Shown here one piece after another: positions 32,885 through 47,023 of a stretch of 64,000 nt of DNA. The position numbers and the translations under genes were made by a program. Source of the stretch: an uncultured bacterium (lineage in GTDB: Bacteria > Hydrothermota > UBA3073 > NMUJ01 > CBEVQO01). The notes under the pieces are model-generated. The model searched no databases. It saw only the letters and a program-made list of their open reading frames with translations, and had not been told where the DNA came from. Location of the stretch: contig CBEVQO010000002.1 of the NCBI GenBank assembly GCA_965552055.1, forward strand, positions 103,229 to 167,228. Reading direction: 5' to 3'. Each line of letters opens with the position of its first letter. The stretch's first letter is position 1.

Positions 32885-33639
32885 GGGGATGCTTTACATT
32901 TATACTGGGACTGATAATAGGTGCTCTTGGATTTTATTTCTTCCTGAACAAAGGGTACGGCAATTTGAAGAGAGATGTTAAAATAGCAATTAAAAAATGG
33001 AAAGGCGAAGAAATTTATACAAAACCCTCTTATACCCATAAAACGAAAAAAAGAAAAAGAAGCAAACATAAAAAGAAAGAAAAAGTCCGGAAAAAATTTG
33101 ATTTAAAAGAGAAAATTACGATAGCTTGGCAGGATAGTTTAAAAAATTTGAGAAAAAGAATAAAATGGCTCACGGATGATAAAGAAGAAAAAATAGAGTG
33201 GTTTTACAAAAGAAAAGAAGAGATAAAGGAGAAGCTCGCGCACAAATGCGGGATTGGTGTCGATAAATTTGATAGATTTATAAGAAAAAACATTTACAAA
33301 GCATGGCAGGATAGTGTAAATAAATTGAAAAAAGCAATAGGTGAATGGCCAACAGAGGAACAATATAAATGGTTTGAAAACAGGAAAAATGTAATAAAAG
33401 CAAAATTGTCAAAAGTTATTGGAATAACACAACAAAAATTTGATAAATTGATAAATCAGAACTTCTATAAAGCATGGGTTGATAGTTTAAAGGAAATAAA
33501 AAATAAAATGAAATGGCTGACAGAGGAAAAAGAAAGGGAATATAAATGGTTTAAAAGCAGAAAAGAGGAAATAAAGCGGAAACTTGCAAAGAAATATGGA
33601 CTTACTTTAAAGCAACTCGAAGATTTACTTAAACGCTGA
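32881..33639 (+). CDS. Membrane-anchored basic protein with three ~57-aa internal repeats
   Basis: N-terminal TM; AW(Q/V)DS...W...WF..RK..IK.KL...G three times. Confidence 0.7.
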   Translation: MRGCFTFILGLIIGALGFYFFLNKGYGNLKRDVKIAIKKWKGEEIYTKPSYTHKTKKRKRSKHKKKEKVRKKFDLKEKITIAWQDSLKNLRKRIKWLTDDKEEKIEWFYKRKEEIKEKLAHKCGIGVDKFDRFIRKNIYKAWQDSVNKLKKAIGEWPTEEQYKWFENRKNVIKAKLSKVIGITQQKFDKLINQNFYKAWVDSLKEIKNKMKWLTEEKEREYKWFKSRKEEIKRKLAKKYGLTLKQLEDLLKR

Positions 33640-33999
33640 ATGAATTAAAATTTCTACCATCGGCATCTCTGGTGAGCGTGGATTTGGTATTACCCTCTTT
33701 TTACTCATATCAACTATCAGGTCTAACTGCTCAAGTATTATTTGACCTACAAGAGGCTGAGTGCCTTCGGGCTCTGCCAGAACATTAAATTCACCTGCCC
33801 TGCCACATAACTCCACTGTTACAATGCCATAAATCGATTTCGTTTTTACTTCTCGCATTTTCCTTAGATTTAACTTGTTGATAATATTTTGTGGTAAAAC
33901 TAGCATCGTTGCTCCTGTGTCAATAACACCTTCTACCTCTACTTTCTTCTCGGGTTCAAAAACATTTATAATTTTTATTTTCTCAACCACTTTTCCCAT
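33625..33999 (-). CDS. Clan AA (retropepsin-like) aspartic protease, possibly with a short internal deletion
   Basis: IDTGATML, LVGQIILEQLDLIVD. Confidence 0.82.
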   Translation of the reverse strand: MGKVVEKIKIINVFEPEKKVEVEGVIDTGATMLVLPQNIINKLNLRKMREVKTKSIYGIVTVELCGRAGEFNVLAEPEGTQPLVGQIILEQLDLIVDMSKKRVIPNPRSPEMPMVEILIHSAFK

Positions 34000-34095
34000 T
34001 TTATTCCTATTAATTATAATCTTCTCTTTAAAATGTCAAGCCAAAATTTATATAGTTGCAGTCAACCCGAGCTTGGACGATTAAAATTTTTAAAT

Positions 34096-34260
34096 TTTTA
34101 ATGCGAGGCGTAGCCGAGCACATTACATATGGGTTGATATGTCAGCCCATTACGGGTTTTGGGTTATAGCAGGGGATTCTGGCTTTATCCTCTGTCTGCG
34201 TATTTCAGCGATAGGAGTGGGCTGACTTAATCGGGAAGGTGGGGACAGCGGAGGCGGGGC
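34096..34260 (+). repeat. Dispersed structured element, copy 1 (hairpin, IR-bounded variable core, G-rich end)
   Basis: Both ends match the reverse complement of 46081-46331; inner IR GTCAGCCCA 34141-34149 / TGGGCTGAC 34218-34226. Confidence 0.8.
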
Positions 34261-34269
34261 TAAAAATAT

Positions 34270-34296
34270 TTGACAAAAATTAAAATTGAATAAAAT
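34270..34296 (+). promoter_or_regulatory. mnmG promoter TTGACA-N15-TAAAAT, ATG 5 nt downstream (probably leaderless)
   Basis: Read directly; no RBS. Confidence 0.7.
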
Positions 34297-34301
34297 AAAG
34301 T

Positions 34302-36164
34302 ATGGTGTATCCCGAAAAATTTGATGTCATCGTTGTTGGTGGTGGGCATGCTGGATGCGAAGCTGCCCTTGCCTGTGCACGAATGGGACTTAAAACTCTT
34401 TTACTCACCTTAAATCTTGATACAATCGGTCAAATGAGCTGTAATCCTTCTGTTGGTGGCATTGGCAAAAGTCATCTTGTTTTTGAAGTTGATGCACTTG
34501 GTGGAGAAATCGGTTTTAACACCGACAAAACAGGTATTGGCTTTAAAATGCTGAATACAAGTAAGGGACCTGCTGTCTGGGCTCTGAGAGCTCAGGTTGA
34601 CCGCAAGCGATATAGAGAAGAGATGCAAAAGCAAATATTTAATCAAAAAAATTTAAAGGTAAAACAGGTGCATGTTGGTGAAATTTTGTTAGAACCCAAT
34701 GGAAAAAGGGTTAAAGGTGTGAAATCTGAATCTGGTATGGAATATCATTGCGATGCAGTTATTCTTACTACAGGTACTTTTTTGAACGGCACAATACATA
34801 TTGGGTTGAAGCATTTTTCAGCAGGTAGATTGGGAGAGCCACCTGCAACGGAGCTTGCAAAATGTCTCGTAGAACTTGGCTTTAAACTGGGAAGGTTGAA
34901 AACAGGAACTTCTCCCCGTGTTGACGGAAGAACAATTGACTTTTCAAAACTTCAGCGTCATCCCCAGGATGAAGCCAAATGGCATTTCTCACACAGGACA
35001 AAAGAATTTTCACCACCAAAAGTTGACTGCTGGATGACACATACAACACCAGAAACCCACGAAATTATACTGAAAAATCTGGATAGGTCCCCCCTATATA
35101 CCGGTAAAATAACGGGAACAGGTGTTAGATACTGTCCATCACTCGAAGATAAAGTTGTGAAATTTAGAGATAAAGCACATCATCAGGTAATTATAGAGCC
35201 AGATGGTCTCGACACTCATGAATATTATCTAAATGGTGTATCTACTTCTCTACCCGAAGATGTACAGATTCAGTATTTGAGGACGATACCAGGGCTCGAA
35301 AAGGTTGAAGTAATAAGACCCGGATACGGAATTGAATATGATTTTGTTTTCCCTTCACAAATCTATCCAACTATGGAGACAAAAAAGATAGAAAATCTAT
35401 ATTTTGCAGGTCAAATAAATGGCACAACGGGTTATGAAGAAGCTGCTGCTCAGGGCATAATCGCTGGCATAAATGCGGCTCTCAAACTAAAAGGCAAACC
35501 CCCATTTATACCCAAAAGGTCAGAAAGTTATCTTGGAGTTTTGATTGATGACCTGACAACAAAAGAGATAACAGAACCTTACAGGATGTTTACAACCCGT
35601 GCAGAATATCGCCTTATTTTACGACAGGACAACGCAGATGAAAGATTGATGAAATACGGAGTGGAATTTGGACTCGTATCGCCGGAAGAATACGAAAAAG
35701 TATTGAAAAGAAAAGAAAGAGTGCAGAAGAAAATTTTTGATTTGAAAACAAAAAAAGTATCACCCGAAGAAATAAACCCGATTCTGGAGAAAAAAGGAAG
35801 TTCTAAAATAAAGGTAAAAACATCCCTCTACGATATTTTGAAGCGTCCAGAAATCAAATATGATGATATAAAAGAATTTGCAGGAGATTTGCCCGATAAA
35901 GAACGCTTACAGGTTGAAACCGAAATAAAATATGAAGGATATATTGAGAAGATGAAAAGAGATGCAAAAAGAATGGAAGAATATGAAAATAAAATTATAC
36001 CCGATTGGATAGATTACGATAAGATACAGAATTTATCATTTGAAGCCCGTGAGAAGTTGAAGAAATTGCGTCCAATGACACTTGGTCAGGCATCACGCAT
36101 AGACGGTGTAACACCAGCAGATATCTTCGCAATACTCGTAGAAATGAAGAAAAATCAAAGATGA
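34302..36164 (+). CDS. mnmG: tRNA uridine-5-carboxymethylaminomethyl(34) synthesis enzyme
   Basis: GGGHAGCEAA, MSCNPSVGG, RLKTGT, YCPSLEDK, GQINGTTGYEEAAAQG. Confidence 0.98.
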   Translation: MVYPEKFDVIVVGGGHAGCEAALACARMGLKTLLLTLNLDTIGQMSCNPSVGGIGKSHLVFEVDALGGEIGFNTDKTGIGFKMLNTSKGPAVWALRAQVDRKRYREEMQKQIFNQKNLKVKQVHVGEILLEPNGKRVKGVKSESGMEYHCDAVILTTGTFLNGTIHIGLKHFSAGRLGEPPATELAKCLVELGFKLGRLKTGTSPRVDGRTIDFSKLQRHPQDEAKWHFSHRTKEFSPPKVDCWMTHTTPETHEIILKNLDRSPLYTGKITGTGVRYCPSLEDKVVKFRDKAHHQVIIEPDGLDTHEYYLNGVSTSLPEDVQIQYLRTIPGLEKVEVIRPGYGIEYDFVFPSQIYPTMETKKIENLYFAGQINGTTGYEEAAAQGIIAGINAALKLKGKPPFIPKRSESYLGVLIDDLTTKEITEPYRMFTTRAEYRLILRQDNADERLMKYGVEFGLVSPEEYEKVLKRKERVQKKIFDLKTKKVSPEEINPILEKKGSSKIKVKTSLYDILKRPEIKYDDIKEFAGDLPDKERLQVETEIKYEGYIEKMKRDAKRMEEYENKIIPDWIDYDKIQNLSFEAREKLKKLRPMTLGQASRIDGVTPADIFAILVEMKKNQR

Positions 36165-36782
36165 AAAAAATATATATTTTTGTTATCGCATCGCTAATTG
36201 TAATAACATGCAAAAAGAATAACAAATTATTGAATTTAAAGAAATAGGAAACTGGGCTTATCAATTGCAGAATGCAAATCCTGATGAAATAGATTATTCA
36301 AGAGATGGGACAAATGAAAAAAGGTATAAGATAGAAGCGGAGGATTATAGATTTTACTGGAAAAGTGAGTGGGATAGTGTTCCACCCGACTGGCTTGGCG
36401 AAGAAAACCCTGAATGGCATGGAAATTATGCAGTAAAATACTGGTATAAAGAGTGGAAAGATATAATTTTTCAATATCTTGATACTGTAATCTCACAGGG
36501 CTTTATGGGTGTTTATCTTGATAAAATTGATGATAAAATTTGTAATGGAAATTGCAGAGTATTGCAGACAAAAGGGTGAAAACTTTTATATAATTCACAA
36601 AATGGAGAAAACATCCTTGAATATGATGATGTAAGTTATCATGTGACTATGTTGATGATGGTACGGGATACTGTGGCAGGAATAAATATAGAATTGAGGA
36701 TTATATAAATAAGGCAAAAAAGTATGGTTTTATACCTTATTGTGCGAGAGCAGACCGTGAATTCCTTTCTGACAAGCAATAA
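36161..36782 (+). pseudogene. Fragmented MJ1477/TM1410-type (GH114-like) glycoside hydrolase lipoprotein
   Basis: Signal MKKIYIFVIASLIVITC, then fragments WAYQLQN, DYSRDG, EAEDYRFYW, ENPEWHGNYAVKYW, GFMGVYLD with stops, frameshifts and missing segments. Confidence 0.78.
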
Positions 36783-36785
36783 AAT

Positions 36786-38456
36786 TCATTTTACCTTTAT
36801 TATCTTTTTCATAGTAGAAAGGTGTTTCAATTTTATTCTGATAAAATATACTCCCGAAGAAATATTCAAAGAAACTCTGTGTCCTCTTTTTCCGTGCGTC
36901 AATGTAAAACATTTTATCAATCTACCATTTATGTCGAAAATCTGCAAACTCGCATCGTAACTTAGTATTTCGGGAAATATTATTTTTAACTCATTTGAAG
37001 ATGTTAATAGTGTCGGATAAATTTCAATTTTCGTTTTTTCTTTTCTTTCTTTTATTGCTTCTGGATGATATTCATATGCTCCTATATCAATTGCGTTCCC
37101 ATAGGGTCTTTCATTATATTCAAGGTCAACATCGGGTGCACCTTCTGCTGTACCTGCATCTATTGCAGGACTCCCCTCTTTTAAATGGAAATCGCCTTCT
37201 GTTCCCCATGCAGGACGAACAAAAAGAGGGTCACCATAAATATTGCCTTCTCCCAAAGCAAAAATACTATCGGAAGTATATTCCCTGCCATTCGCATAAA
37301 CCTGTACATCTTCGTTTATATAAAATAGATTGTGGTCAGCAGTTAAATTCACAGCATTGCCAAAATAAACCCTTCTTCCGCCCGATATAATTGTATTGCG
37401 TAAAAGAACATTTATAGGTGCATTTGCAGAATACTGGAAATAAGCGGAGTAATGATTGCGAGATGGCACATCGTATGCCGTTATATTTATAAATTCAAAA
37501 TAACCATTTGTATCTTCCGATTCAACAACAATTAATGACCATGGCGTAGGTGTAGTATCTCTATCTCCTGTACCGTAAATAAGTACATTAACTGCTTTGC
37601 TTGAATCGCCCCATAATTTCAATCCATCAGCCCAGTTATTTGCAATAATACAATTATGAACGAAAGTACGACGAGATTTTGAATCGATTCCATCTCCTCT
37701 ATTGTGCTCCGAAATAACATTGTATATTTCGAGCGGACCTTCAGAAGGCTCCATACCTATTCCATCAGGTCTATCATAAGGTGAAATCGTATCCCGTCCC
37801 ATATAAAAATATCCTGCATATCCCAGATAAGTATTATCAATTATGACATTACGCCAGCCATAAGATGTTCCAGCAGGAGCAGAAATGGCACTCATACCCG
37901 TATGATGAATAGAGCATCCAGATACTCTAACATCTTCAATATCTCCTGCGAAATTTATACCGCATTCTTCAAGATGGTGCATTACTACATTTTCTATGAT
38001 AATGTGTGAAACAAAAGCACCTGCACCGGCTGCACCGCCTGCCTCTATCCCTTCACGCATACCACCAGAATAAGGTGTATCAATATAACTGGTTAATTCG
38101 AGATTCGCAATTTTTACATAACTGAGATTCGAAATATCTATCGCAGAAAGTAAACTTCCTTTACCTGCGAGAACAGGCAAACTATCTCCATATCCCATTA
38201 TCACAGTATAAGCGGTTTGTGTACCTGATGGAGGTGTTATCATATCATCGTAATAAGTTGATAAAACATAGGTTCCGGGTAACATTATCAGAGTATCGCC
38301 AGGAGAAATTTGTTTTGAGCCATAACCCGGTGTAGCCCATGGATGCTCGTAAGTGCCCGGATTCGTATCATTGCCCGAAGGCGAAACATAGTATGTAGTG
38401 GCATATAACTCGTCTAGAAAAAATATAACCCCTATAAAAATAAAAAGACGCATCAT
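36786..38456 (-). CDS. Secreted right-handed beta-helix protein with T9SS-like C-terminal sorting domain
   Basis: YYVSPSGNDTNPGT, DFHLKEGSPAIDAG, DIGAYEY, IFDINGRLI...SGVYFIRI. Confidence 0.85.
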   Translation of the reverse strand: MMRLFIFIGVIFFLDELYATTYYVSPSGNDTNPGTYEHPWATPGYGSKQISPGDTLIMLPGTYVLSTYYDDMITPPSGTQTAYTVIMGYGDSLPVLAGKGSLLSAIDISNLSYVKIANLELTSYIDTPYSGGMREGIEAGGAAGAGAFVSHIIIENVVMHHLEECGINFAGDIEDVRVSGCSIHHTGMSAISAPAGTSYGWRNVIIDNTYLGYAGYFYMGRDTISPYDRPDGIGMEPSEGPLEIYNVISEHNRGDGIDSKSRRTFVHNCIIANNWADGLKLWGDSSKAVNVLIYGTGDRDTTPTPWSLIVVESEDTNGYFEFINITAYDVPSRNHYSAYFQYSANAPINVLLRNTIISGGRRVYFGNAVNLTADHNLFYINEDVQVYANGREYTSDSIFALGEGNIYGDPLFVRPAWGTEGDFHLKEGSPAIDAGTAEGAPDVDLEYNERPYGNAIDIGAYEYHPEAIKERKEKTKIEIYPTLLTSSNELKIIFPEILSYDASLQIFDINGRLIKCFTLTHGKRGHRVSLNISSGVYFIRIKLKHLSTMKKIIKVK

Positions 38457-38633
38457 ACCCTCCTTACCAATTATAAACATTTCACAAGGGTGTCAATTAA
38501 AAATTAAACCGGAATCTCAATTCTCCTTAATTCATAAGTGCAAATGCTTCGATAGCAAGTAATGCAGATAAATATCTTTTGCATTATTAAAATACTTCTT
38601 TGACATCTCAATCGCAAAATGTCAAGTTAAAAC

Positions 38634-38660
38634 TTGACAGAGCAACAAATTGATTAAAAT
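38634..38660 (+). promoter_or_regulatory. glyQ promoter TTGACA-N15-TAAAAT, ATG 5 nt downstream
   Basis: Read directly. Confidence 0.7.
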
Positions 38661-38665
38661 AAGAG

Positions 38666-39523
38666 ATGACTTTTCAGGATGTAGTTTTGAAGTTATCGGA
38701 TTACTGGAGAAAGAAAGGTTGTCTCATCACCCAGCCCTATCCCACAGAGACAGGTGCTTTAACTTTTGACCCCTTTACCTTTTTCAAAGTGCTCGATAAG
38801 GAACCATGGCGGGTGGCATATTACGGAATATCAAAGCGTCCAAAAGATGGAAGATACGCAGAAAATCCCAATCGCTTACAGCAATTTTATCAATATCAGG
38901 TTATTTTAAAACCACCACCGGATGATGTGCAAGAATTGTATCTTAAAAGTTTAGAACATATTGGAATTAACTTGAAAGAGCATGATGTTAGATTTGTTGA
39001 AGATGACTGGGAATCCGAAGCACTTGGAGCACGAGGACTCGGCTGGGAAGTATGGCTCGATGGCCTTGAAATCACGCAATTTACCTATTTTCAGGAAGTA
39101 GCAGGATTCAAATTAAATCCACCTTCTGTGGAATTAACTTATGGACTTGAAAGAATTTGCATGTTTTTACAGAAAAAGGACAATGTATTTGAGATAGAAT
39201 GGGGAGCAGGAATAAAATATGGCGAACTTTTTAAAAAATCGGAATATGAATTTTGTAGATTTAACTATGACGATGCAAATGTTGAATTATACAGAAAGTT
39301 ATTTGACGATTTTGAAAAAGAAGCTATAAGATTTTTAACAGAATTAAAGTTACTGGCACCTGGATACGATTATGTAATGAAGTGTTCCCACATTTTAAAC
39401 ATTCTTGATGCAAGAAGGGCAATAGGTCCTGAGGAGCGTAAAACATACATTGCTCGTGTAAGAAAACTTGCGCATCTTGCAGCAAAATTATATCTTGAGC
39501 AAAAATACGGGGAGGTGAAATGA
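38666..39523 (+). CDS. glyQ: Glycine-tRNA ligase alpha subunit
   Basis: DGRYAENPNRLQ, FVEDDWES, GWEVWLDGLEITQFTYFQ, ELTYGLER. Confidence 0.97.
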   Translation: MTFQDVVLKLSDYWRKKGCLITQPYPTETGALTFDPFTFFKVLDKEPWRVAYYGISKRPKDGRYAENPNRLQQFYQYQVILKPPPDDVQELYLKSLEHIGINLKEHDVRFVEDDWESEALGARGLGWEVWLDGLEITQFTYFQEVAGFKLNPPSVELTYGLERICMFLQKKDNVFEIEWGAGIKYGELFKKSEYEFCRFNYDDANVELYRKLFDDFEKEAIRFLTELKLLAPGYDYVMKCSHILNILDARRAIGPEERKTYIARVRKLAHLAAKLYLEQKYGEVK

Positions 39524-41676
39524 TTCTTTGCTTATTTTTAAGCATTTTTTATGGATACGGTAGTGCGAGTTCACTTGGGGCATACGGCGTTATAGCAAAT
39601 CCCGCTGGAATGAAAATAAGAACAGAATACGGAAGCTTCTCAATCTTGCGGTATCCAATGCTTACATCTGTAACATATCTCGGGGATATCGGATTTTGCA
39701 CAATATCTGACACTCTCACAAAAATAAAATTACTTCCTGAAAATTACATCATCAGTATTGCACCTTTATCTCTTCAAAAAGGCGAATTAACGCTCTTCGG
39801 AGGTTATTCTTTCATAAAGAAAAAAGATAAAAAATTTCATAGAATAGGATTTCTTTTGCCACTTTCTGACAAAATATTTCTGGGCTCACATTTCACATAT
39901 AGTGATGATAAATTGAATTATGAAGCAGGAATTTTCGCAAGACCTTTAAAATTTGTGGATATAAAAGTAGATGTTATAAAAGACACATCTTTAGAATATA
40001 ATTTGGGAGCACTTTTTAAAATTCAGAATTTCGAATTCTGGGGAGACTATCTTTTAAATGTGAAAAGATATAGAGCAGGTTTTCTTTTCAAATACAAGAG
40101 ACTTGGATTTGGTGTTTTTTATGACAAAGGTATCTCTTTTGAATTGTGCTTTCTGAAAAGAAGCGTACCTCTGGCTTTCTTGAAAAAGAAAAGAATTGCA
40201 GAAGTTGTTGTCAAAGGAAGTTATCCCGAGATTAAAATTAAGGGCGATTTGATGTTCGGCTTCAAACCTGTCCCCTATTTTTATAATTTCCTATCAAAAA
40301 TTCATAAACTCTCAAAGATAAAAGGCATAAAAGCGGTCTTATTTAATCTAAAAGATTTTAATATGTCCTATGCACAGGTTGAAGAAGTAAGAGAAGAAAT
40401 TATGAAATTGAAGAAAAAAGGAGTTAAGATTATCTTTTACTCACCCCATTATGGTCCTCTTTCCTATTATCTTGCAAGTTGTGGTGATTATGTGATAATA
40501 TCTCCCATGGGCGAAATTTATCTCGGTGGATTAGCGGTTTATTCTGTGCATTTTAAGAAAACATTAGACAAACTCGATATCGAAGTTGATACTTTTCGGG
40601 TAGGGAAATACAAATCCGCAATAGAGGCATTTGCAAGGGATAAGATGTCGGATGAAGATAGAGAACAAACCATGACTTTTTTAAAAGACTTATGGAAAGA
40701 AATATCATCAAAAATATGCGAGAGATTAAAAATTACTGAAGATTCTCTTATGAAAATTGTGAATGAAAAAATCATTTTGAATGACAGAGAAGCCGTTTCA
40801 CTGGGATTTTGTGATACTTTTCTTTATGAATGGGAAGTTAAAAATTTTGTAAAGAAAAAAATTGGTAGATATAAAATAACTCCGATTGATAAAATTCTAT
40901 CTGATTTTTCTTCTGAAAAATCATTTTTTGCACCCAAGATTGCTGTTGTGATTGCAGAAGGTAACATAATCCTTGGCGAAAGTAATTATTCGCAACATTT
41001 TTTATTTGGCGAACAGAAACTGATAGGTTCAGAAACCATGAAAAAGATTTTTTCACAGATAGAGCGCGATAAAAGGATTAAGGGAGTTGTTTTCAGGGTA
41101 AATTCCGGAGGAGGTGATGCTCTTGCATCGGAAATTATTGCAAAATCACTGGAGAAATGCAGAAAAAAGAAACCAGTAGTTGTATCAATGGGCGAAATGG
41201 CAGCTTCTGGTGGATATTACATATCATGCCTATCAGATAAAATTTATGCCGATAAAATGACGCTAACAGGGTCAATAGGTGTACTTTCTTTAAAACTCAT
41301 ACTCAAAGGTTTATATGATAAACTTGGCATCACCTTTGACACATTAAAAATCGGAGAACATGCTTTGATGTGGTCGGATTTAAGAAAAATGAATGAAAAA
41401 GAAAGAAAAAGGGTAAAAGAACTAATTAAATGGTTTTATGATAAATTTATAGAAAGAGTATCAGAAGGCAGGGGCTTATCAAAATCATATGTTGATTCGA
41501 TTGCCCAGGGAAGAATCTGGTCAGGACTCTCTGCTCTTAACCTAAAATTAATCGACAAAAATGGAAATATTTTTGATGCAATTGAAGAAGTTAAAAATCT
41601 GGCAAAAGTAAAAAAGCCAGAAATTGAAGTTATTATTTTACCGAAAAAGAAGAAAAGAAAATTATTACCATTTTAA
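39520..41676 (+). CDS. sppA: Signal peptide peptidase SppA (long form) with N-terminal extension
   Basis: GKYKSA, RVNSGGG, SMGEMAASGGYY, TGSIGV, QGRIWSG. Confidence 0.9.
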   Translation: MILCLFLSIFYGYGSASSLGAYGVIANPAGMKIRTEYGSFSILRYPMLTSVTYLGDIGFCTISDTLTKIKLLPENYIISIAPLSLQKGELTLFGGYSFIKKKDKKFHRIGFLLPLSDKIFLGSHFTYSDDKLNYEAGIFARPLKFVDIKVDVIKDTSLEYNLGALFKIQNFEFWGDYLLNVKRYRAGFLFKYKRLGFGVFYDKGISFELCFLKRSVPLAFLKKKRIAEVVVKGSYPEIKIKGDLMFGFKPVPYFYNFLSKIHKLSKIKGIKAVLFNLKDFNMSYAQVEEVREEIMKLKKKGVKIIFYSPHYGPLSYYLASCGDYVIISPMGEIYLGGLAVYSVHFKKTLDKLDIEVDTFRVGKYKSAIEAFARDKMSDEDREQTMTFLKDLWKEISSKICERLKITEDSLMKIVNEKIILNDREAVSLGFCDTFLYEWEVKNFVKKKIGRYKITPIDKILSDFSSEKSFFAPKIAVVIAEGNIILGESNYSQHFLFGEQKLIGSETMKKIFSQIERDKRIKGVVFRVNSGGGDALASEIIAKSLEKCRKKKPVVVSMGEMAASGGYYISCLSDKIYADKMTLTGSIGVLSLKLILKGLYDKLGITFDTLKIGEHALMWSDLRKMNEKERKRVKELIKWFYDKFIERVSEGRGLSKSYVDSIAQGRIWSGLSALNLKLIDKNGNIFDAIEEVKNLAKVKKPEIEVIILPKKKKRKLLPF

Positions 41677-41679
41677 ATT

Positions 41680-42633
41680 ATGAGAGCTTTATCTCTTTTT
41701 TCTGGGGGACTTGATAGTTTACTTGCTACCAGATTGATTCAAGAACAGGGTATAGAGGTCATCGGTGTATTTTTCAGGACACCCTTTTTAGCGGTTGGCA
41801 CAGAAAACAAAGTTAAGAAAATGGCAAAGATGGTTGGAATTCCTCTTTTCGTTGTCTTTTTGGGAAGAGAATATATTGAACTTATAAAAAATCCACCCCA
41901 TGGTTATGGTGAAAATATGAATCCATGTCTTGACTGTCACGCCATGATGGCGAAAAAAGCAAAAATGCTAATGGAAAAACTGGGAGCGAAATTTCTGATA
42001 ACAGGAGAAGTAGTTGGAGAAAGAGGAAGCCAAACCCGTCCTTATATGCGTTACATTGAGAAATATGCAGGATTAAAAGATTTAATTTTAAGACCTCTTT
42101 CTGCAAAAATTTTACCCGAAACTATACCGGAAAAAGAAAAATGGGTAAATCGTGAGAAATTATTGGGAATAAGTGGCAGAAGCAGAAAACCTCAATTTGA
42201 ACTCGCACAGAAATACGGATTCAAAGATTTTCCAACACCTTCCGGTGGATGCCTTATTACAGACCCGACCTTCTGCCAAAGATTAAAAGATGCTTTTGAA
42301 CATGGAGAAGATTCTCTCGAAAGAATAGAATTACTAAAATATGGAAGACATTTCAGATTAAAATCCGGTGCAAAAGTAGTTGTCGCAAGAAATGATTTTG
42401 AATCAAGGAAAATCAAAAGGCTGGCAATTTACGGAGATTATTTGATACAGTGTCACAAAGAAAAAGCACCTCTCACATTACTTATGGGCGACGAAAATGA
42501 TTTAGAGGAAGCCATAAAATATTGTATAAAATATTCAAAAATGAAAAAAGGGACTTATACCGTAAGACAGAAAGGCAAAGGTATTTTATACAGGGCGAAT
42601 TTTGACACCGAAGTGTCTGAGAGCATCAAGTAA
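41680..42633 (+). CDS. PP-loop tRNA sulfurtransferase (ThiI/MnmA-like family)
   Basis: FSGGLDS, NPCLDCH, TGEVVG, LRPLSAK, GGCLIT, GRHFR. Confidence 0.8.
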   Translation: MRALSLFSGGLDSLLATRLIQEQGIEVIGVFFRTPFLAVGTENKVKKMAKMVGIPLFVVFLGREYIELIKNPPHGYGENMNPCLDCHAMMAKKAKMLMEKLGAKFLITGEVVGERGSQTRPYMRYIEKYAGLKDLILRPLSAKILPETIPEKEKWVNREKLLGISGRSRKPQFELAQKYGFKDFPTPSGGCLITDPTFCQRLKDAFEHGEDSLERIELLKYGRHFRLKSGAKVVVARNDFESRKIKRLAIYGDYLIQCHKEKAPLTLLMGDENDLEEAIKYCIKYSKMKKGTYTVRQKGKGILYRANFDTEVSESIK

Positions 42634-42954
42634 AGAATATTTTATCGTCAAAAAATCAAGCAGTCCCACTTCTTTTATTATGTCTTCCGCAAGAGAAGAT
42701 AGATTTATCAGCACAATATCGCCTCCAAGACCCCTTGCCGTCTTGGTAAGATAAATTATCACTCCAAGACCCTGTGTGGAAATAAATTCCATATCTTTAA
42801 GATCAAGTATTATCTTTATCTCTCCTTCTTTTATCCTTTTTTCAAAGTAATCCAGTAACACTTGGGAAGATGTATCATCAAGAGCAAAATTAATCTTATA
42901 AACGGGTATACCCTTTACCTCTTCGTATTCCAGTTTTATTCCTTCTTTTTTCAT
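42586..42954 (-). CDS. STAS anti-sigma-factor antagonist
   Basis: IILDLKDMEFISTQGLG...GGDIVL. Confidence 0.88.
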   Translation of the reverse strand: MKKEGIKLEYEEVKGIPVYKINFALDDTSSQVLLDYFEKRIKEGEIKIILDLKDMEFISTQGLGVIIYLTKTARGLGGDIVLINLSSLAEDIIKEVGLLDFLTIKYSLLDALRHFGVKIRPV

Positions 42955-43298
42955 TTGAATTTCAATAATGCCTCATCAAGTGTATCAGTTACATTAAGAA
43001 CGGATAGCAGTTGCACTTCGTTCAATATATCCCAGTTTGGTGAAGACAGTTCACATATCACGAGGTCACCACCTCTTTCCCTTGCCATACGAGTAATAGC
43101 AACAAGAGCACCCAATCCCTGGGTTGATATAAAATCAACTTTCCTCATGTGAAATACTATTTTGCGCCTGCCACTTTTAATTTCTTCTGCCATAAAATCA
43201 ATTAGAGATTGTGAAGTCATTTCATCAAGAGGTGTCGCAATATAATACACAGATACATCTCCATGCTCTTCACGCCAAAATTTGGCAACCTCAGCCAT
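42951..43298 (-). CDS. STAS anti-sigma-factor antagonist
   Basis: VDFISTQGLG...GGDLVI. Confidence 0.88.
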   Translation of the reverse strand: MAEVAKFWREEHGDVSVYYIATPLDEMTSQSLIDFMAEEIKSGRRKIVFHMRKVDFISTQGLGALVAITRMARERGGDLVICELSSPNWDILNEVQLLSVLNVTDTLDEALLKFK

Positions 43299-43647
43299 TA
43301 TCCCCCCTTATTATTGAAATTGCTTCTTTAACTGATGAACACATATCAATCACTTCCGGTATGCCCACAGCTTTTATTATTTCGGAAATTTTTTTGTTTA
43401 AATTAGCTATTATAAACCTGCCTCCTTTGTTTTTACAATTAACACTAAGGGTAAATAAAGCAGCTATCCCATTGGTAGATATAAAATTTACATCACCCAT
43501 ATCAACGATAAGATTGGGTGACTCTTTCTCAATGTAAGATTTGGCTTCTTCAAAAAATTTGCGAGCATATTCCTCATCCATATCACCCGATAGATAAAAC
43601 ACACCAACATCATTTACCTTCTCAAATTTGAAATTATCTACGCACAT
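43291..43647 (-). CDS. STAS anti-sigma-factor antagonist
   Basis: LSGDMD, IVDMGDVNFISTNGI. Confidence 0.85.
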   Translation of the reverse strand: MCVDNFKFEKVNDVGVFYLSGDMDEEYARKFFEEAKSYIEKESPNLIVDMGDVNFISTNGIAALFTLSVNCKNKGGRFIIANLNKKISEIIKAVGIPEVIDMCSSVKEAISIIRGDNG

Positions 43648-46034
43648 ACTATATTCAAAAGCTTGCCCTTCACATAAATTATACGCTTTATCTCTTTACC
43701 CTCTGTAAATCTTTTAACATTCCAGTGAGAAAGCGCTTTCTCCTTAATTTCTTCTTCCCCAGCATCAGCAGGTACCTCAATCTCACCCCTTACCTTGCTA
43801 TTCACCTGCACCACTATTTTTATCTTTTCTTCTTTTATCTCTTTGTAAGATGGCCATTCTGTTCTGAAAACAGATTCTTTTTTGCCAATTTTATGCCACA
43901 GTTCTTCTGCTAAATGCGGTGCAAAAGGTGCTAAAAGCTTTATATAGTTGAAAAGCGCCCAGCCAAAAGCAGGGTCACTATCTTTACCCTGTAATTCGTT
44001 CAAAAATTCCATAAGAGAAGCAATTCCCGTATTCAAACCAAAATTCTCAATCTGTTGGGTTATTCTCTTTATATATTTATGGGTCAATCTGTAAACAGGA
44101 CTATCAACATCGGGTTCCCTTTCTGTAACTTTATCAATGTTTTGCTCAAAGAAGTTAAATAACCTTCTTATAAATCTCCTTGCTCCTGTTACATTCTTAT
44201 CCATCCAGATTCCATCTTTATCAGGCGGTCCCATAAACAAAATAGCAAGACGGGCTACATCCGCTCCTTCTTTCTCAACAAAAGGACCAACTTCAACTAC
44301 ATTTCCCTTTGACTTCGACATAACCTGACCCTTCTCATCCTTTACCATACCCTGATTGAACAACTTTATGGCTGGCTCATCAACATTAACCCAGCCTTTA
44401 TCATAAAGGAACTTTGTCATAAAACGGAAATAAAGAAGATGACCCGTAGCATGCTCAGCACCACCTATATAAAGGTCTATCGGCATCCAGATTTTCACTT
44501 TCTCAGGTTCAAACGGCTTTTTGTCATTTTTAGGGTCAATGTATCTCAGGAAATACCAGGACGAACACATAAATGTATCCATGGTATCTGTATCACGCTT
44601 CGCCTCTCCTCCACATTTTGGACATTTCGTATTCACAAACTCAGGAACAGATGCAAGTGGAGATTTGCCCCGTGGTGCATAATCTTTTACTTCAGGAAGC
44701 AAAACAGGTAAATCTTCTTCGGGCACAGGAACGATTCCACATTTTTCACAATAAATTATAGGAATAGGTGCACCCCAGTATCTCTGACGGGAAATGAGCC
44801 AGTCCCTCAACCTGTATGTTACCTTTTTGCGACCAAATCCCTTTTCATTAAACCACTCTATAAGCTGCGGTATCGCTTCTTCAGATGTTTTACCCGTAAA
44901 CTCACCCGAATTTATCATTATGCCCTTTTCAGTAAAAGCACCATTAGAAAAATCCCATTCGCCTTCCTTTGGCTTTATAACCTGTTTCACAGGAAGATTA
45001 TATTGCTGGGCAAACTCAAAATCTCGCTGATCATGAGCAGGCACACCCATAACAGCTCCTGTGCCATAAAGAGGCAATACATAATCCGCAACATAAAGAG
45101 GCACTCTTTCACCATTCACAGGATTAATGACATATTTCCCGGTAAAATAGCCATTCTTCTGAAATTGACGCTCATATTCAGGACGCCTTAAAACATCTTC
45201 AATAAATCTTGAAAGTCCAGAATCTTTTTTAGAAAGCTCAATCGCAACTGGATGCTCAGGTGCAATTGCAAGAAATGTGACACCAAAAACGGTATCAGGA
45301 CGGGTGGTGAAAACAGATATTTTACCACCATCAAATTCAAAATCAATTTCTGCACCTTCACTCCTTCCTATCCAGTATTCCTGCATTCTTTTTATCTCAT
45401 CTGGCCAGTCTTTTAACTTTTTAAGGTCATTTAATAACCTTTCGGCATAAGCAGTAATCTTTATAAACCATTGATTTAGAGATTTTTTACCAACCTGAGA
45501 GCCACACCTCCAGCATCTACCTTCTATAACCTGCTCATTCGCAAGAACTGTCTGACAGCCAGGACACCAGTTGACATAAGCCTCTTTCTTATAAGCAAGT
45601 CCACTCTTATACAACTGCAAAAATAACCATTGCGTCCACTTATAATAATCGGGATTGCAGGAAATAACTTCCCTGTCCCAATCATAACTTATACCAACGA
45701 GTTTCAAACTTTTCCTTGATTTCTCAATGTTATTCATGGTCCACTCACGGGGATGTATTCCCCTCAAAATAGCAGCATTCTCGGCAGGCAAACCAAAAGC
45801 ATCCCAGCCCATGGGATGTAAAACCTGATAACCCCTCATCCACTTATAACGAGCAATGGTATCACCTATCACATAATTCCTCAAATGTCCCATATGCATA
45901 TCACCGGAAGGATAAGGAAACATACAGAGCAAATAAAATTTCTTCTTCGGATTGTCAGAAACTTTAAAAATACCTTCACTCTCCCAGAATTCCTGCCACT
46001 TCCTTTCTACCTCTTTAAAATCATACTTCTCCAT
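43638..46034 (-). CDS. leuS: Leucine-tRNA ligase
   Basis: MFPYPSG HMGH, WLISRQRYWG, VMSKS. Confidence 0.98.
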   Translation of the reverse strand: MEKYDFKEVERKWQEFWESEGIFKVSDNPKKKFYLLCMFPYPSGDMHMGHLRNYVIGDTIARYKWMRGYQVLHPMGWDAFGLPAENAAILRGIHPREWTMNNIEKSRKSLKLVGISYDWDREVISCNPDYYKWTQWLFLQLYKSGLAYKKEAYVNWCPGCQTVLANEQVIEGRCWRCGSQVGKKSLNQWFIKITAYAERLLNDLKKLKDWPDEIKRMQEYWIGRSEGAEIDFEFDGGKISVFTTRPDTVFGVTFLAIAPEHPVAIELSKKDSGLSRFIEDVLRRPEYERQFQKNGYFTGKYVINPVNGERVPLYVADYVLPLYGTGAVMGVPAHDQRDFEFAQQYNLPVKQVIKPKEGEWDFSNGAFTEKGIMINSGEFTGKTSEEAIPQLIEWFNEKGFGRKKVTYRLRDWLISRQRYWGAPIPIIYCEKCGIVPVPEEDLPVLLPEVKDYAPRGKSPLASVPEFVNTKCPKCGGEAKRDTDTMDTFMCSSWYFLRYIDPKNDKKPFEPEKVKIWMPIDLYIGGAEHATGHLLYFRFMTKFLYDKGWVNVDEPAIKLFNQGMVKDEKGQVMSKSKGNVVEVGPFVEKEGADVARLAILFMGPPDKDGIWMDKNVTGARRFIRRLFNFFEQNIDKVTEREPDVDSPVYRLTHKYIKRITQQIENFGLNTGIASLMEFLNELQGKDSDPAFGWALFNYIKLLAPFAPHLAEELWHKIGKKESVFRTEWPSYKEIKEEKIKIVVQVNSKVRGEIEVPADAGEEEIKEKALSHWNVKRFTEGKEIKRIIYVKGKLLNIVCA

Positions 46035-46044
46035 AATCTTTTAA

Positions 46045-46071
46045 ATTATATCTATTTTTCGATTTTGTCAA
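46045..46071 (-). promoter_or_regulatory. leuS promoter TTGACA-N15-TATAAT
   Basis: Read directly. Confidence 0.7.
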
Positions 46072-46080
46072 GTATTTTTT

Positions 46081-46331
46081 GCCCCGCCTCCCAGTCCCCA
46101 CCTTCCCATGTGCACACCCCGAGCACAGCACAAGCACCATTAACCCTTTCAACGCACTTCTCACACCTTTCCCGTAATAAGTCAAATTCCCAACCAAACC
46201 ATTGCCACACTCAAAAACCACCTAAGCACTTTAAAAGCCCTATCCTCCAACAAAATGCGGTTCAGCTTATGTGCTCGGGGTGTGACAAAAGACCCTTATG
46301 TAACAGGCTCGGCTACGCCTCGCATTAAAAA
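46081..46331 (-). repeat. Dispersed structured element, copy 2
   Basis: Ends match 34096-34260; inner 15-bp perfect IR CACACCCCGAGCACA 46113-46127 / 46270-46284. Confidence 0.8.
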
Positions 46332-46369
46332 CTTTACCCTTGACATTTTCTGTTTTTTGTTATAATGTT

Positions 46370-47023
46370 ATGATGAAAATAAACCACAAAATTATAATCC
46401 TCTTATTTTCTTATATGGTTTCGCTTGCAGTCACCACCCAAAATTCACGGTGTTATCGATTAAAAATGGGGATATTTTTTTCGAATTATCGCCTTTTTCA
46501 AACGAATTGGACAGGTGTCAATAAAAGTGGTTACAGCTGGAATGGTCCTTCGGGAAGTTATACGAATCGTTTGAATATCGGACTTTATTTTTTATACCTT
46601 TTAAACAAAACAGTAACAATAGGAGTAGATATTTCATATTATCATCTTAAATTGAGTGAAAGTATCGGATGTACTGATTACTATCTTCATAAACTTAAAA
46701 TTTTAAACATTTCTCCAACCATAGAGCATAAGGTTTATAAAACCAGTTTACTCACTTTATATGAAGCTGCAGGAATATCATTGTGTAATAATATTTTATC
46801 ACTCGATTATTACGAAAAAACTTTCTACGGTATCACATTCAATATCTTTATAAATTTGGGAATAGATTTCAGATGCAGGGATAAAATGATTATAGGTCCA
46901 ATTATAAAAATAAATTACTACCATAAAAAGATAAAATGGAATAAATCATTTACTTTCATCTCCAACGAGAAAAACGCCCTGCCATTAAGTGGAATTGAAT
47001 TAGGATTAAGATGCCTGTTTTAA
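46370..47023 (+). CDS. Putative outer-membrane beta-barrel protein
   Basis: Signal-like N-terminus, amphipathic strands, terminal Phe; start after promoter 46340-46366. Confidence 0.55.
   Translation: MMKINHKIIILLFSYMVSLAVTTQNSRCYRLKMGIFFSNYRLFQTNWTGVNKSGYSWNGPSGSYTNRLNIGLYFLYLLNKTVTIGVDISYYHLKLSESIGCTDYYLHKLKILNISPTIEHKVYKTSLLTLYEAAGISLCNNILSLDYYEKTFYGITFNIFINLGIDFRCRDKMIIGPIIKINYYHKKIKWNKSFTFISNEKNALPLSGIELGLRCLF

Follow-up and report, generated by a model that had tools for sequence, protein, structure and literature searches.

The 64,000-nt stretch of DNA analysed here (the window; positions 103229-167228 of contig C2 of the genome, G000), from the genome of an uncultured hot-vent bacterium of the phylum Hydrothermota, contains two related non-coding elements, designated copies A and B, which precede the genes mnmG and leuS, respectively. 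A 25-nt 5′ block, TTTTTAATGCGAGGCGTAGCCGAGC, is identical in both and is followed by TTACATA.GGGT, and their common 3′ end consists of GGGAAGGTGGGGAC, a spacer of 2–3 nt, GGAGGCGGGGC and then AAAAATA.TTGACAAAA; an A-rich 3′ flank leads into TTGACA in both copies. An earlier inspection of these letters (the sequence-only reading) had reported the shared blocks and a separate closing inverted repeat for each middle part. Both observations were confirmed, although the conserved element also reaches beyond the named end blocks into the AT-rich flanks on both sides. The two middles had further been taken as unrelated; their closing stems do differ, but they occupy the same position of one helix, P2, and both middles carry a ATTACGGG box.

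The sequence-only reading had described two copies, A and B; the genome (2.23 Mb in 15 contigs, 35.6% GC, rated 97% complete) holds about 71. A 17-mer of the 5′ block gave 18 exact and 6 near matches (1–2 mismatches) in the genome and none with a reversed control, and a 28-nt pattern of the 3′ block gave 24 matches and none with its control; since both patterns recur in this way and the controls do not, the blocks shared by copies A and B are not due to chance. With a looser anchor placed in the G-rich 3′ tail, 70 sites were found, 69 of them with a hairpin of the same type (P1) upstream, and a covariance model derived from 20 short copies recovered the tail-anchored copies and one more (C8:52958-53039) with a decayed tail. 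After masking of these, BLAST detected about 25 further fragments, many directly beside full copies and some inverted. Copies are spread over 10 contigs, and 69 full ones were analysed. This set bears out the idea that the elements form a dispersed, non-coding family in which the scaffold is fixed and the core, closed by a stem, varies. We consider it rather probable that both copies come from a family of small, non-autonomous intergenic repeats with a mosaic build, which is confined to this species and similar in kind to REP/BIME, BOX, ERIC and Correia elements. The family is new and its build is unusually one-sided and G-rich; its general kind, the dispersed repeats of bacteria, is known. 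The parts of the two copies are listed in Table 1.

Table 1. Parts of copies A and B and the signals that follow them, in positions of the 64,000-nt window
Feature	Position	Strand	Remarks
Copy A	34092-34269	+	157-nt class
Copy A, 5′ AT-rich flank AAATTTTTAAT	34092..34102	+	family consensus AAAATTTTTAAT; TA at -4/-3 nearly invariant
Copy A, hairpin P1, GC-GA-GGC / GTA / GCC-GA-GC	34103..34119	+	variant H1
Copy A, conserved box TTACATATGGGTTG	34123..34136	+	
Copy A, variable stem-loop P2	34141..34226	+	157-nt class; closed by GTCAGCCCA/TGGGCTGAC
Copy A, closing inverted repeat GTCAGCCCA/TGGGCTGAC	34141-34149 and 34218-34226	+	
Copy A, ATTACGGG box	34149-34156	+	inside P2
Copy A, G tail GGGAAGGTGGGGACAGCGGAGGCGGGGC	34233..34260	+	C breaks third G run; not a canonical G-quadruplex motif
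Copy A, 3′ AT flank TAAAAATAT	34261..34269	+	
-35-like TTGACA past copy A	34270-34275		mnmG start codon at 34302
Copy B	46334-46072	-	243 nt, ~245-nt class
Copy B, 5′ AT flank AAGTTTTTAAT	46324..46334	-	
Copy B, hairpin P1	46307..46323	-	variant H1
Copy B, stem-loop P2	46113..46284	-	15-bp fully Watson-Crick closing stem CACACCCCGAGCACA/TGTGCTCGGGGTGTG; loop of G/T-rich sub-modules
Copy B, closing inverted repeat CACACCCCGAGCACA/TGTGCTCGGGGTGTG	46284-46270 and 46127-46113	-	
Copy B, ATTACGGG box	46178-46171	-	inside P2 loop
Copy B, G tail GGGAAGGTGGGGACTGGGAGGCGGGGC	46081..46107	-	canonical motif (G3+N1-7 x4)
Copy B, 3′ AT flank AAAAAATAC	46072..46080	-	
TTGACA past copy B, then TATAAT	46071-46066		leuS start codon at 46034

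Counting from the first base of P1 through the final GGGGC, the copies are 58–463 nt long and fall into at least 8 length classes: ~65 nt (9 copies, without a core), ~97 nt (15), 125 nt (1, with an inverted core), ~157 nt (24, copy A among them), ~190 nt (5), ~245 nt (2, including copy B), 266 nt (1), ~318 nt (10), 412 nt (2) and 463 nt (1). The order of parts is constant in all full copies: an AT-rich flank ending in TA, P1, a linker of 3 variable bases, a TTACATATGGGT box, P2, the G tail, and a second TA with its AT-rich flank. P1 occurs in three main versions, GCGAGGC-GTA-GCCGAGC (H1), GCGAGC-GTAA-GCGAGC (H2) and ACGAGC-GAA-GCGAGT (H3), with GNA or GNNA loops; in two copies it is fully Watson-Crick paired (GCTCGGC...GCCGAGC). 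P2 is lacking in the 65-nt class; elsewhere it holds between 11 and about 380 nt. The 97-nt class has a P2 stem of 6–8 bp (CACCCC/GGGGTG) with an 11-nt loop, and the stem of the 157-nt class has another sequence, GTCAGCCCA/TGGGCTGAC. Longer classes lengthen the CACCCC stem by way of a second tandem G.A (CACCCC-GA-GC...GC-GA-GGGGTG), and here it closes a loop of one to several G/T-rich sub-modules, which bear an ATTAYGG box (4.15 per kb in the elements, 0.20 per kb genome-wide) and a small hairpin with a TGT loop. The P2 loop of copy B is related to the cores of this long series (190- to 463-nt classes), and it is closed by a stem that corresponds to their GA-containing one in an all-Watson-Crick form. 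The variants H1, H2 and H3 are present in nearly all length classes; this free assortment indicates that copies recombine with one another and that exchange has been frequent.

The same mosaic structure bears on another explanation, that the scaffold is an insertion hotspot and the cores are unrelated small mobile elements that entered it independently, the sequence-only reading having suggested two different MITEs (miniature transposable elements with inverted repeats). Nine copies consisting of the scaffold without a core, the position of the cores at always the same point and the combination of P1 variants with all core classes would agree with this. However, BLAST of the masked genome detected no free-standing core away from the scaffold or a scaffold fragment; the core classes are nested and expand P2 by shared sub-modules (ATTAYGG box, TGT hairpin); and in the covariance model the stem of the 157-nt class falls on P2 of the 97-nt class and shows compensatory flips. 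With cores that share one homologous helix position and are never scaffold-free, we hold independent insertions to be highly improbable, and the proposal of two MITEs was not upheld.

P1 is an imperfect palindrome of 15–19 nt, the arms of which have 6, 7 or 8 nt and are always matched in length. Among the 69 copies its closing pair is GC in 52, AT in 16 and GT in 1, and the tandem G.A is kept in 66, replaced by Watson-Crick pairs in 2 and by A.A in 1; the proposed hairpin with tandem G.A thus has the backing of compensatory changes. For the structure as a whole, 49 distinct copies aligned to the covariance model were compared with 500 shuffles. Paired cells amounted to 82.3% (70.9% in shuffles) and the covariation score to 0.210 (0.069 in shuffles), values that none of the 500 shuffles reached, in an alignment that had itself been fitted to the tested structure; sliding the 3′ partners by 1–3 columns lowered the score to 0.05 or less. 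The covariance model, which had been suggested as a check, therefore gave covariation in both P1 and P2. P2 is 99.4% paired. At three of its pairs, the 157-nt and 97-nt classes have the bases in opposite order (G-C to C-G, U-A to A-U); these flips divide two subfamilies and so may represent few events. In the small hairpin of the long cores, three covarying stems (CAAGGC/GCCTTG, CGGGAC/GTCCCG and CAGGTC/GACCTG) are found around the one TGT loop. In nearest-neighbour folding as RNA, H1, H2 and H3 reach -5.4, -4.2 and -0.4 kcal/mol on the plus strand and -3.3, -1.2 and 0 kcal/mol on the minus strand, and the Watson-Crick variant -11.6 kcal/mol at 37 °C, compared with -5.4 for H1. Because the weak G.A form is kept in nearly all copies despite this stronger variant, the folding energies point to retention of the tandem G.A for recognition of the motif rather than for stability.

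Compensatory changes in P1 and P2, P1 loops of the GNRA type and a plus strand that folds better than the minus strand could also be taken as signs of a multi-copy structured non-coding RNA, a scaffold with variable cargo read from the G-rich strand; GC-rich islands in AT-rich genomes of thermophiles are, moreover, typical of RNA genes. Neither a conserved -35/-10 before the element nor a terminator was seen, however, and the sequence upstream of the AT flank is not conserved. No gene transcript enters the 26 of 68 copies located between divergent genes. The variants of the TGT hairpin show both G.T and A.C mismatches and give no clear RNA-strand signature, and RNAalifold, applied to the 157-nt class, predicted only the invariant closing stem and no conserved inner fold of the core on either strand. 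Rfam gave no match at gathering score over the whole window and, at E<=10, only UptR (21 bits, cut-off 100) and mir-7957 (17 bits, cut-off 76). Considering, in addition, its restriction to one species, we regard an RNA gene family as very unlikely, and the scaffold RNA with cargo considered in the sequence-only reading found no backing.

The G tail follows the consensus G3-N1-2-G2-N-G4-A-Y-W-G-(C)-G2-A-G2-N-G4-C. Its 18 columns with a G consensus show 3 departures in 1242 cells, and the 10 other columns 152 in 690; three G columns lying upstream of the search anchor behave like the other G columns of the tail. The canonical G-quadruplex motif (G3+N1-7 x4) is present in 44 of 69 tails and at 20 places in the rest of the genome, so that the family supplies 44 of the 64 motifs, about two thirds. 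The 3′ block, which the sequence-only reading thought able to form a G-quadruplex, thus has a motif of that type in these tails, that of copy B among them, but not in the class of copy A, in which a C breaks the third run and only 1 of 24 tails is canonical. In every length class, the plus strand has 37–49% G and 14–19% C. One copy, at G000:C5:24610-24667 (-), has a tandem duplication of part of the tail (GGGGATAGGGAGGTGGGGATAGGGAGGTGGGC), which shows slippage within the G tract.

On the 5′ side the flank has the consensus AAAATTTTTAAT, with T in 66 and A in 68 of 69 copies at positions -4/-3; the 3′ flank reads TAAAAATT, and its TA is kept in 61 (T) and 69 (A) of 69. These TAs lie in T-run...A-run tracts of 8 bp that are inverted to one another, AATTTTTA/TAAAAATT. 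3′ flanks that are coding depart from the consensus (TAATAAT, TATAATC, TAAATAT), which would suit a flank made of the host's target DNA, with a preference for TA within AT-rich tracts and possibly a duplication of TA. Nothing longer than such a possible TA is visible as a target-site duplication, as had been noted for the first two copies.

Gene context was derived from crude open reading frame (ORF) calls (at least 90 aa, greedy selection, no gene finder), which gave 1900 ORFs covering 93% of the genome. All copies are intergenic; of 68, 26 lie between divergent, 36 between tandem and 6 between convergent genes, and those between tandem genes are opposed to the genes in 24 cases and co-oriented in 12. 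The location between divergent promoters seen earlier is therefore true of copies A and B, but not of the family at large. The start codon of a co-oriented gene past the tail is mostly 39–54 nt away. The 33 such genes examined are diverse (phoB, an ABC ATPase, nadC, rnfC, hslV, folD, purB, hypF, putP and others), and six of them (mnmG, leuS, aspS, cysS, pnp and rph) function in translation or RNA metabolism; the supposed link to translation genes is thus not general. Element orientation showed no bias relative to local GC skew (32/70) or to the majority gene strand (30/70).

Past the tail, TTGACW occurs within 7–22 nt in 35 of 69 copies. Since promoter-like sites far from any element bear the same A-tract before the -35, the element lies at the edge of an ordinary promoter and is not its source. 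This affects the reading as a structural or docking element at the DNA level, in which a tail G-quadruplex, or the tail and P1 bound by protein, would bound or modulate divergent promoters in a thermophile. Nearly invariant G positions with free spacers, a pattern repeated between orthologues, would suit such a role, as would the surplus of canonical tails over the 20 motifs elsewhere, the quadruplex that ViennaRNA places in 41 of 69 plus-strand folds, C-poor cores that leave the G runs no competitor, and the TTGACW sites. The largest class breaks the third run, however, in 24 copies the tail abuts a stop codon instead of a promoter, the distance to the -35 varies, no TTGACW lies within 40 nt in 34 of 69 copies, the A-tract does not need the element, and the quadruplex term uses RNA parameters only. 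We judge this role to be quite unlikely.

At both mnmG (34270-34304) and leuS (46071-46032), the start codon follows TTGACA and a -10-like box at a distance of only a few bases and is not preceded by a Shine-Dalgarno sequence; both genes look leaderless or nearly so. In a genome-wide census of leaderless promoters, which used the crude gene calls, distances from the -10 to the start of the longest ORF were widely scattered. Next to copy B, positions 46340-47023 (+) encode a 227-aa ORF with no Pfam family, the listed TTG start of which overlaps a promoter-like site (TTGACA-N17-TAATGT); its true start is probably an ATG near 46375.

Among 34 genes ending within 30 nt of an element, 24 do so at the tail end and 10 at the P1 end (binomial p=0.024). 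The stop codons of the 24 are -1 to 21 nt from the tail; 13 of these stops are a TAG to which the flank contributes TA and the element its first G. This gene-end bias would suit a host cis-element, in which a long, C-rich, G-poor and weakly folded RNA, read from the tail side after a stop codon, would load Rho, terminate transcription ahead of the following promoter and so insulate close-packed genes. The minus-strand RNA (37–49% C, 14–19% G) has the appropriate composition and folds weakly (-0.164 kcal/mol per nt, compared with -0.287 for the plus strand), a rho gene is present in the genome, and no hairpin with a T run is visible in either orientation of the element. The 26 copies between divergent genes, however, receive no gene transcript; 10 genes enter from the wrong side; and the bias is modest and could stem from an insertion preference. 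Furthermore, all relatives searched manage without the element, which changes faster than its flanks between strains (see below). Rho loading is thus unlikely as the primary explanation.

As to associated genes, 3 of 20 genes for retropepsin-like proteins (p=0.16) and none of 27 for PaREP1-like proteins have a copy at 300 nt or less, so no association with guest genes was found. A retropepsin-like ORF of 124 aa (clan AA), from this 20-member family, is situated beside copy A at window positions 33625-33999 (-). Four of five paralogous beta-helix surface proteins of ~1000 aa with a sorting tail of the type IX secretion system (T9SS) have a repeat copy 60–136 nt upstream (G000:C1:385520, C3:106158, C3:199950 and C5:125565), always with the P1 end toward the gene and with differing length classes.

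With up to two mismatches allowed, the tail pattern was absent from all 40 relatives, which range from members of the order to more distant ones of the phylum; the collection searched has no second genome of the taxonomic family. Within the class, the covariance model was run on 21 other genomes and gave a single marginal match (in G009), which is hairpin-like, lacks the G tail and was treated as chance. Across the genome collection, the tail pattern alone has at least 96 single matches in GC-rich genomes, which are uninformative and were likewise read as chance, and among viral contigs a single match to a 22-nt pattern and none to the 5′ pattern indicated no link to phages. A metagenome scan retrieved 18 loci from two metagenomes, 94–99.6% identical to the genome; the sequencing runs with matching DNA are labelled vent and sediment metagenomes, with no RNA run among them. 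Judged by these sequence collections, the family is restricted to one species. With about 71 copies, covariation and no match to a known family, none of the findings that would have spoken against the sequence-only reading was made.

Most of the 18 loci align with the genome from end to end, and four (L168, L170, L174 and L177) differ structurally at the element. In L168, the locus of copy A, and in L170, where the P1 variant differs as well, divergence from the genome is complete just beyond P1; L174 has a different tail subtype and has lost its 5′ part. The sequence that takes the place of the retropepsin-like ORF in L168 begins exactly at the element end. L177 contains, beside a tRNA gene, a strain-specific island of 1177 nt (L177:745-1921, compared with G000:C1:340794-340803) that is absent from the genome and comprises a 210-aa nucleotidyltransferase-like ORF, a truncated copy of the repeat and a retropepsin-like ORF of 127 aa. 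Metagenome contigs stop at the elements. An apparent contig joint of 46120-46275, with 9 letters between, was rejected as an allele of copy B; it arises from other copies of the 97-nt class aligning to its scaffold.

Between strains, substitutions number 36 in 2232 positions of the elements (1.61%), 22 in 2642 of other intergenic DNA (0.83%) and 228 in 22645 of coding DNA (1.01%), and indel positions 36, 9 and 5, respectively; these counts show no hint of purifying selection on the element as a whole. In L175, from a relative ~94% identical, the orthologous element has 94.0% and the adjacent gene 94.4% identity, and all seven differences of the element are in its edge, P1 loop, linker, tail spacers or 3′ flank.

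The search for a mobilising enzyme covered selected protein families only. As the sequence-only reading had observed for the window, no cognate enzyme is visible: the scans for Y1, TnpB, DDE and reverse transcriptase families found nothing in the assembly. Y2_Tnp had no match either, with a control that also matched nowhere. The candidates are limited to one IS110-type transposase and three tyrosine recombinases, one of which adjoins a copy on contig 9. The transposase is encoded by a single gene (G000:C6:126424-127452), the ends of which are unrelated to the repeat family. A transposase-less copy of these ends is located at C1:358245-358480, and a piece of the right end (C5:37460-37522) is flush against the 5′ flank of the repeat copy at C5:37533. 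The multi-copy protein families of the genome (surface proteins with T9SS tails, PKD proteins, PaREP1/DUF5618, Uma2 and retropepsin-like proteins) include no transposase. With no Y1/HUH gene found, mobilisation as single-stranded DNA, as originally suggested, remains an inference.

In the reading that we prefer, a species-specific family of mosaic intergenic repeats, past spread would have taken place by an insertion process with a preference for TA inside AT-rich tracts at gene boundaries, and later reshuffling mainly by recombination or gene conversion between copies, with the P2 loop growing by addition of G/T-rich sub-modules. The tandem G.A, the G runs with their freely varying spacers and the C-poor cores would be read, by an enzyme or a host protein, on the G-rich strand when single-stranded; this strand is taken to be DNA because most copies have no evident route to transcription. 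In a genome that is ~93% coding, the position by promoters and stop codons would mostly reflect where insertions are tolerated.

Several observations weigh against this reading. Among the compared strains there is no clean pair of a filled and an empty site, so that mobility rests on inference, and the 97%-complete assembly has no match to Y1_Tnp (PF01797; the control matched in 6 of 14 genomes), to the TnpB zinc-ribbon domain (PF07282) or to DDE_Tnp_1, rve, DDE_3 and RVT_1. The GC-rich body lacks terminal inverted repeats, its ends ATGCGAG... and ...GGCGGGGC being unrelated, and the 8-bp inverted AT flanks with their TA could represent target preference rather than element ends. As DNA, P1 folds with -0.8 to -1.6 kcal/mol, no better than shuffles; mini-hairpins with GNA loops and sheared G.A pairs are unusually stable as DNA, which the energy models used here do not reproduce. 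As RNA it is predicted to be unfolded at 70 °C, save for the Watson-Crick variant. The tail statistics carry some ascertainment bias, the copies having been found via the tail, and the copy at C8:52958-53039 has a decayed one. The near-invariant G positions, together with the 24-to-10 bias of gene ends, could reflect a host function and not selfish spread. Finally, the copies can be old and stable, an orthologous one being in place in the ~94% relative.

Rho loading, a promoter boundary and a G-quadruplex role together carry, in our estimate, about a quarter of the weight. We also think it unlikely that the copies represent a new strand-specific type of element, combining a tandem-G.A mini-hairpin with a G-quadruplex-forming tail, both read on single-stranded DNA, that is mobilised by an enzyme family not yet linked to transposition or has been taken over by this thermophile as a combined promoter-boundary and Rho-loading module.

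Small dispersed repeats are common in bacteria, few of them with a known means of spread or host role. The present family has three unusual traits: a one-sided base composition, a weak tandem-G.A hairpin that is kept, and near-invariant G runs with free spacers. If they reflect function, the family would offer a natural example in which to study G-quadruplexes, or how single-stranded DNA is recognised, at high temperature. For annotation, such GC-rich islands ought not to be entered as RNA genes or as regulatory sites, and the elements mark sites of strain differences and of breaks in short-read assemblies.

In the review PMC10969869, BOX elements of Streptococcus pneumoniae are named among repeat families and the Correia element is given as a classical prokaryotic MITE. 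Our family fails the tested defining features of REP/RAYT systems, IS200/IS605 derivatives and classical MITEs, and a full-text literature search aimed at such families found no described intergenic repeat family that matches it. REP/BIME (REPIN) repeats of Enterobacteria and Pseudomonas are mobilised by RAYT (Y1) transposases. By description only, our family is like them in having tens of extragenic copies, an imperfect palindrome, mosaics of modules in both orientations, a location at gene ends or between promoters, and a structure that reads on one strand. Unlike them, it has no RAYT or Y1 gene; its full copies show a single P1 that lacks an inverted partner, rather than inverted doublets, with an additional, partly inverted fragment alongside at some loci; and it has a long, strand-asymmetric, G-rich body with a tail and a stem-loop of 0 to ~400 nt. 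Palindrome-associated elements derived from IS200/IS605 undergo single-stranded DNA transposition by a Y1 HUH enzyme. A subterminal one-strand hairpin, a body without inverted repeats and a TTAC 3 nt past the hairpin are shared with these elements, but here the hairpin is at one end only (the 3′ end being the G tract), there is no TnpA or TnpB gene, and orientation shows no bias relative to strand composition. Integron attC-like sites differ as well, the present copies being dispersed over 10 contigs with no association with small guest genes. Insertion of the Correia element is accompanied by a TA duplication; our elements resemble it and MITEs in their small size, lack of coding capacity, frequent location directly upstream of genes, TA on both sides and strain differences. 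They differ in having no real terminal inverted repeats (only the 8-bp AT-rich flank), no outward promoter shown and no parent insertion sequence (no DDE_Tnp_1, rve or DDE_3; IS110-type ends unrelated). BOX elements are laid out as boxA, repeated boxB and boxC. Their host and composition are unrelated to those of our family, which is bordered by a tandem-G.A hairpin and a G-tract tail and has its internal modules within a closing stem; the likeness is one of architecture, with fixed end modules, a variable number of internal sub-modules, intergenic location and no known transposase.

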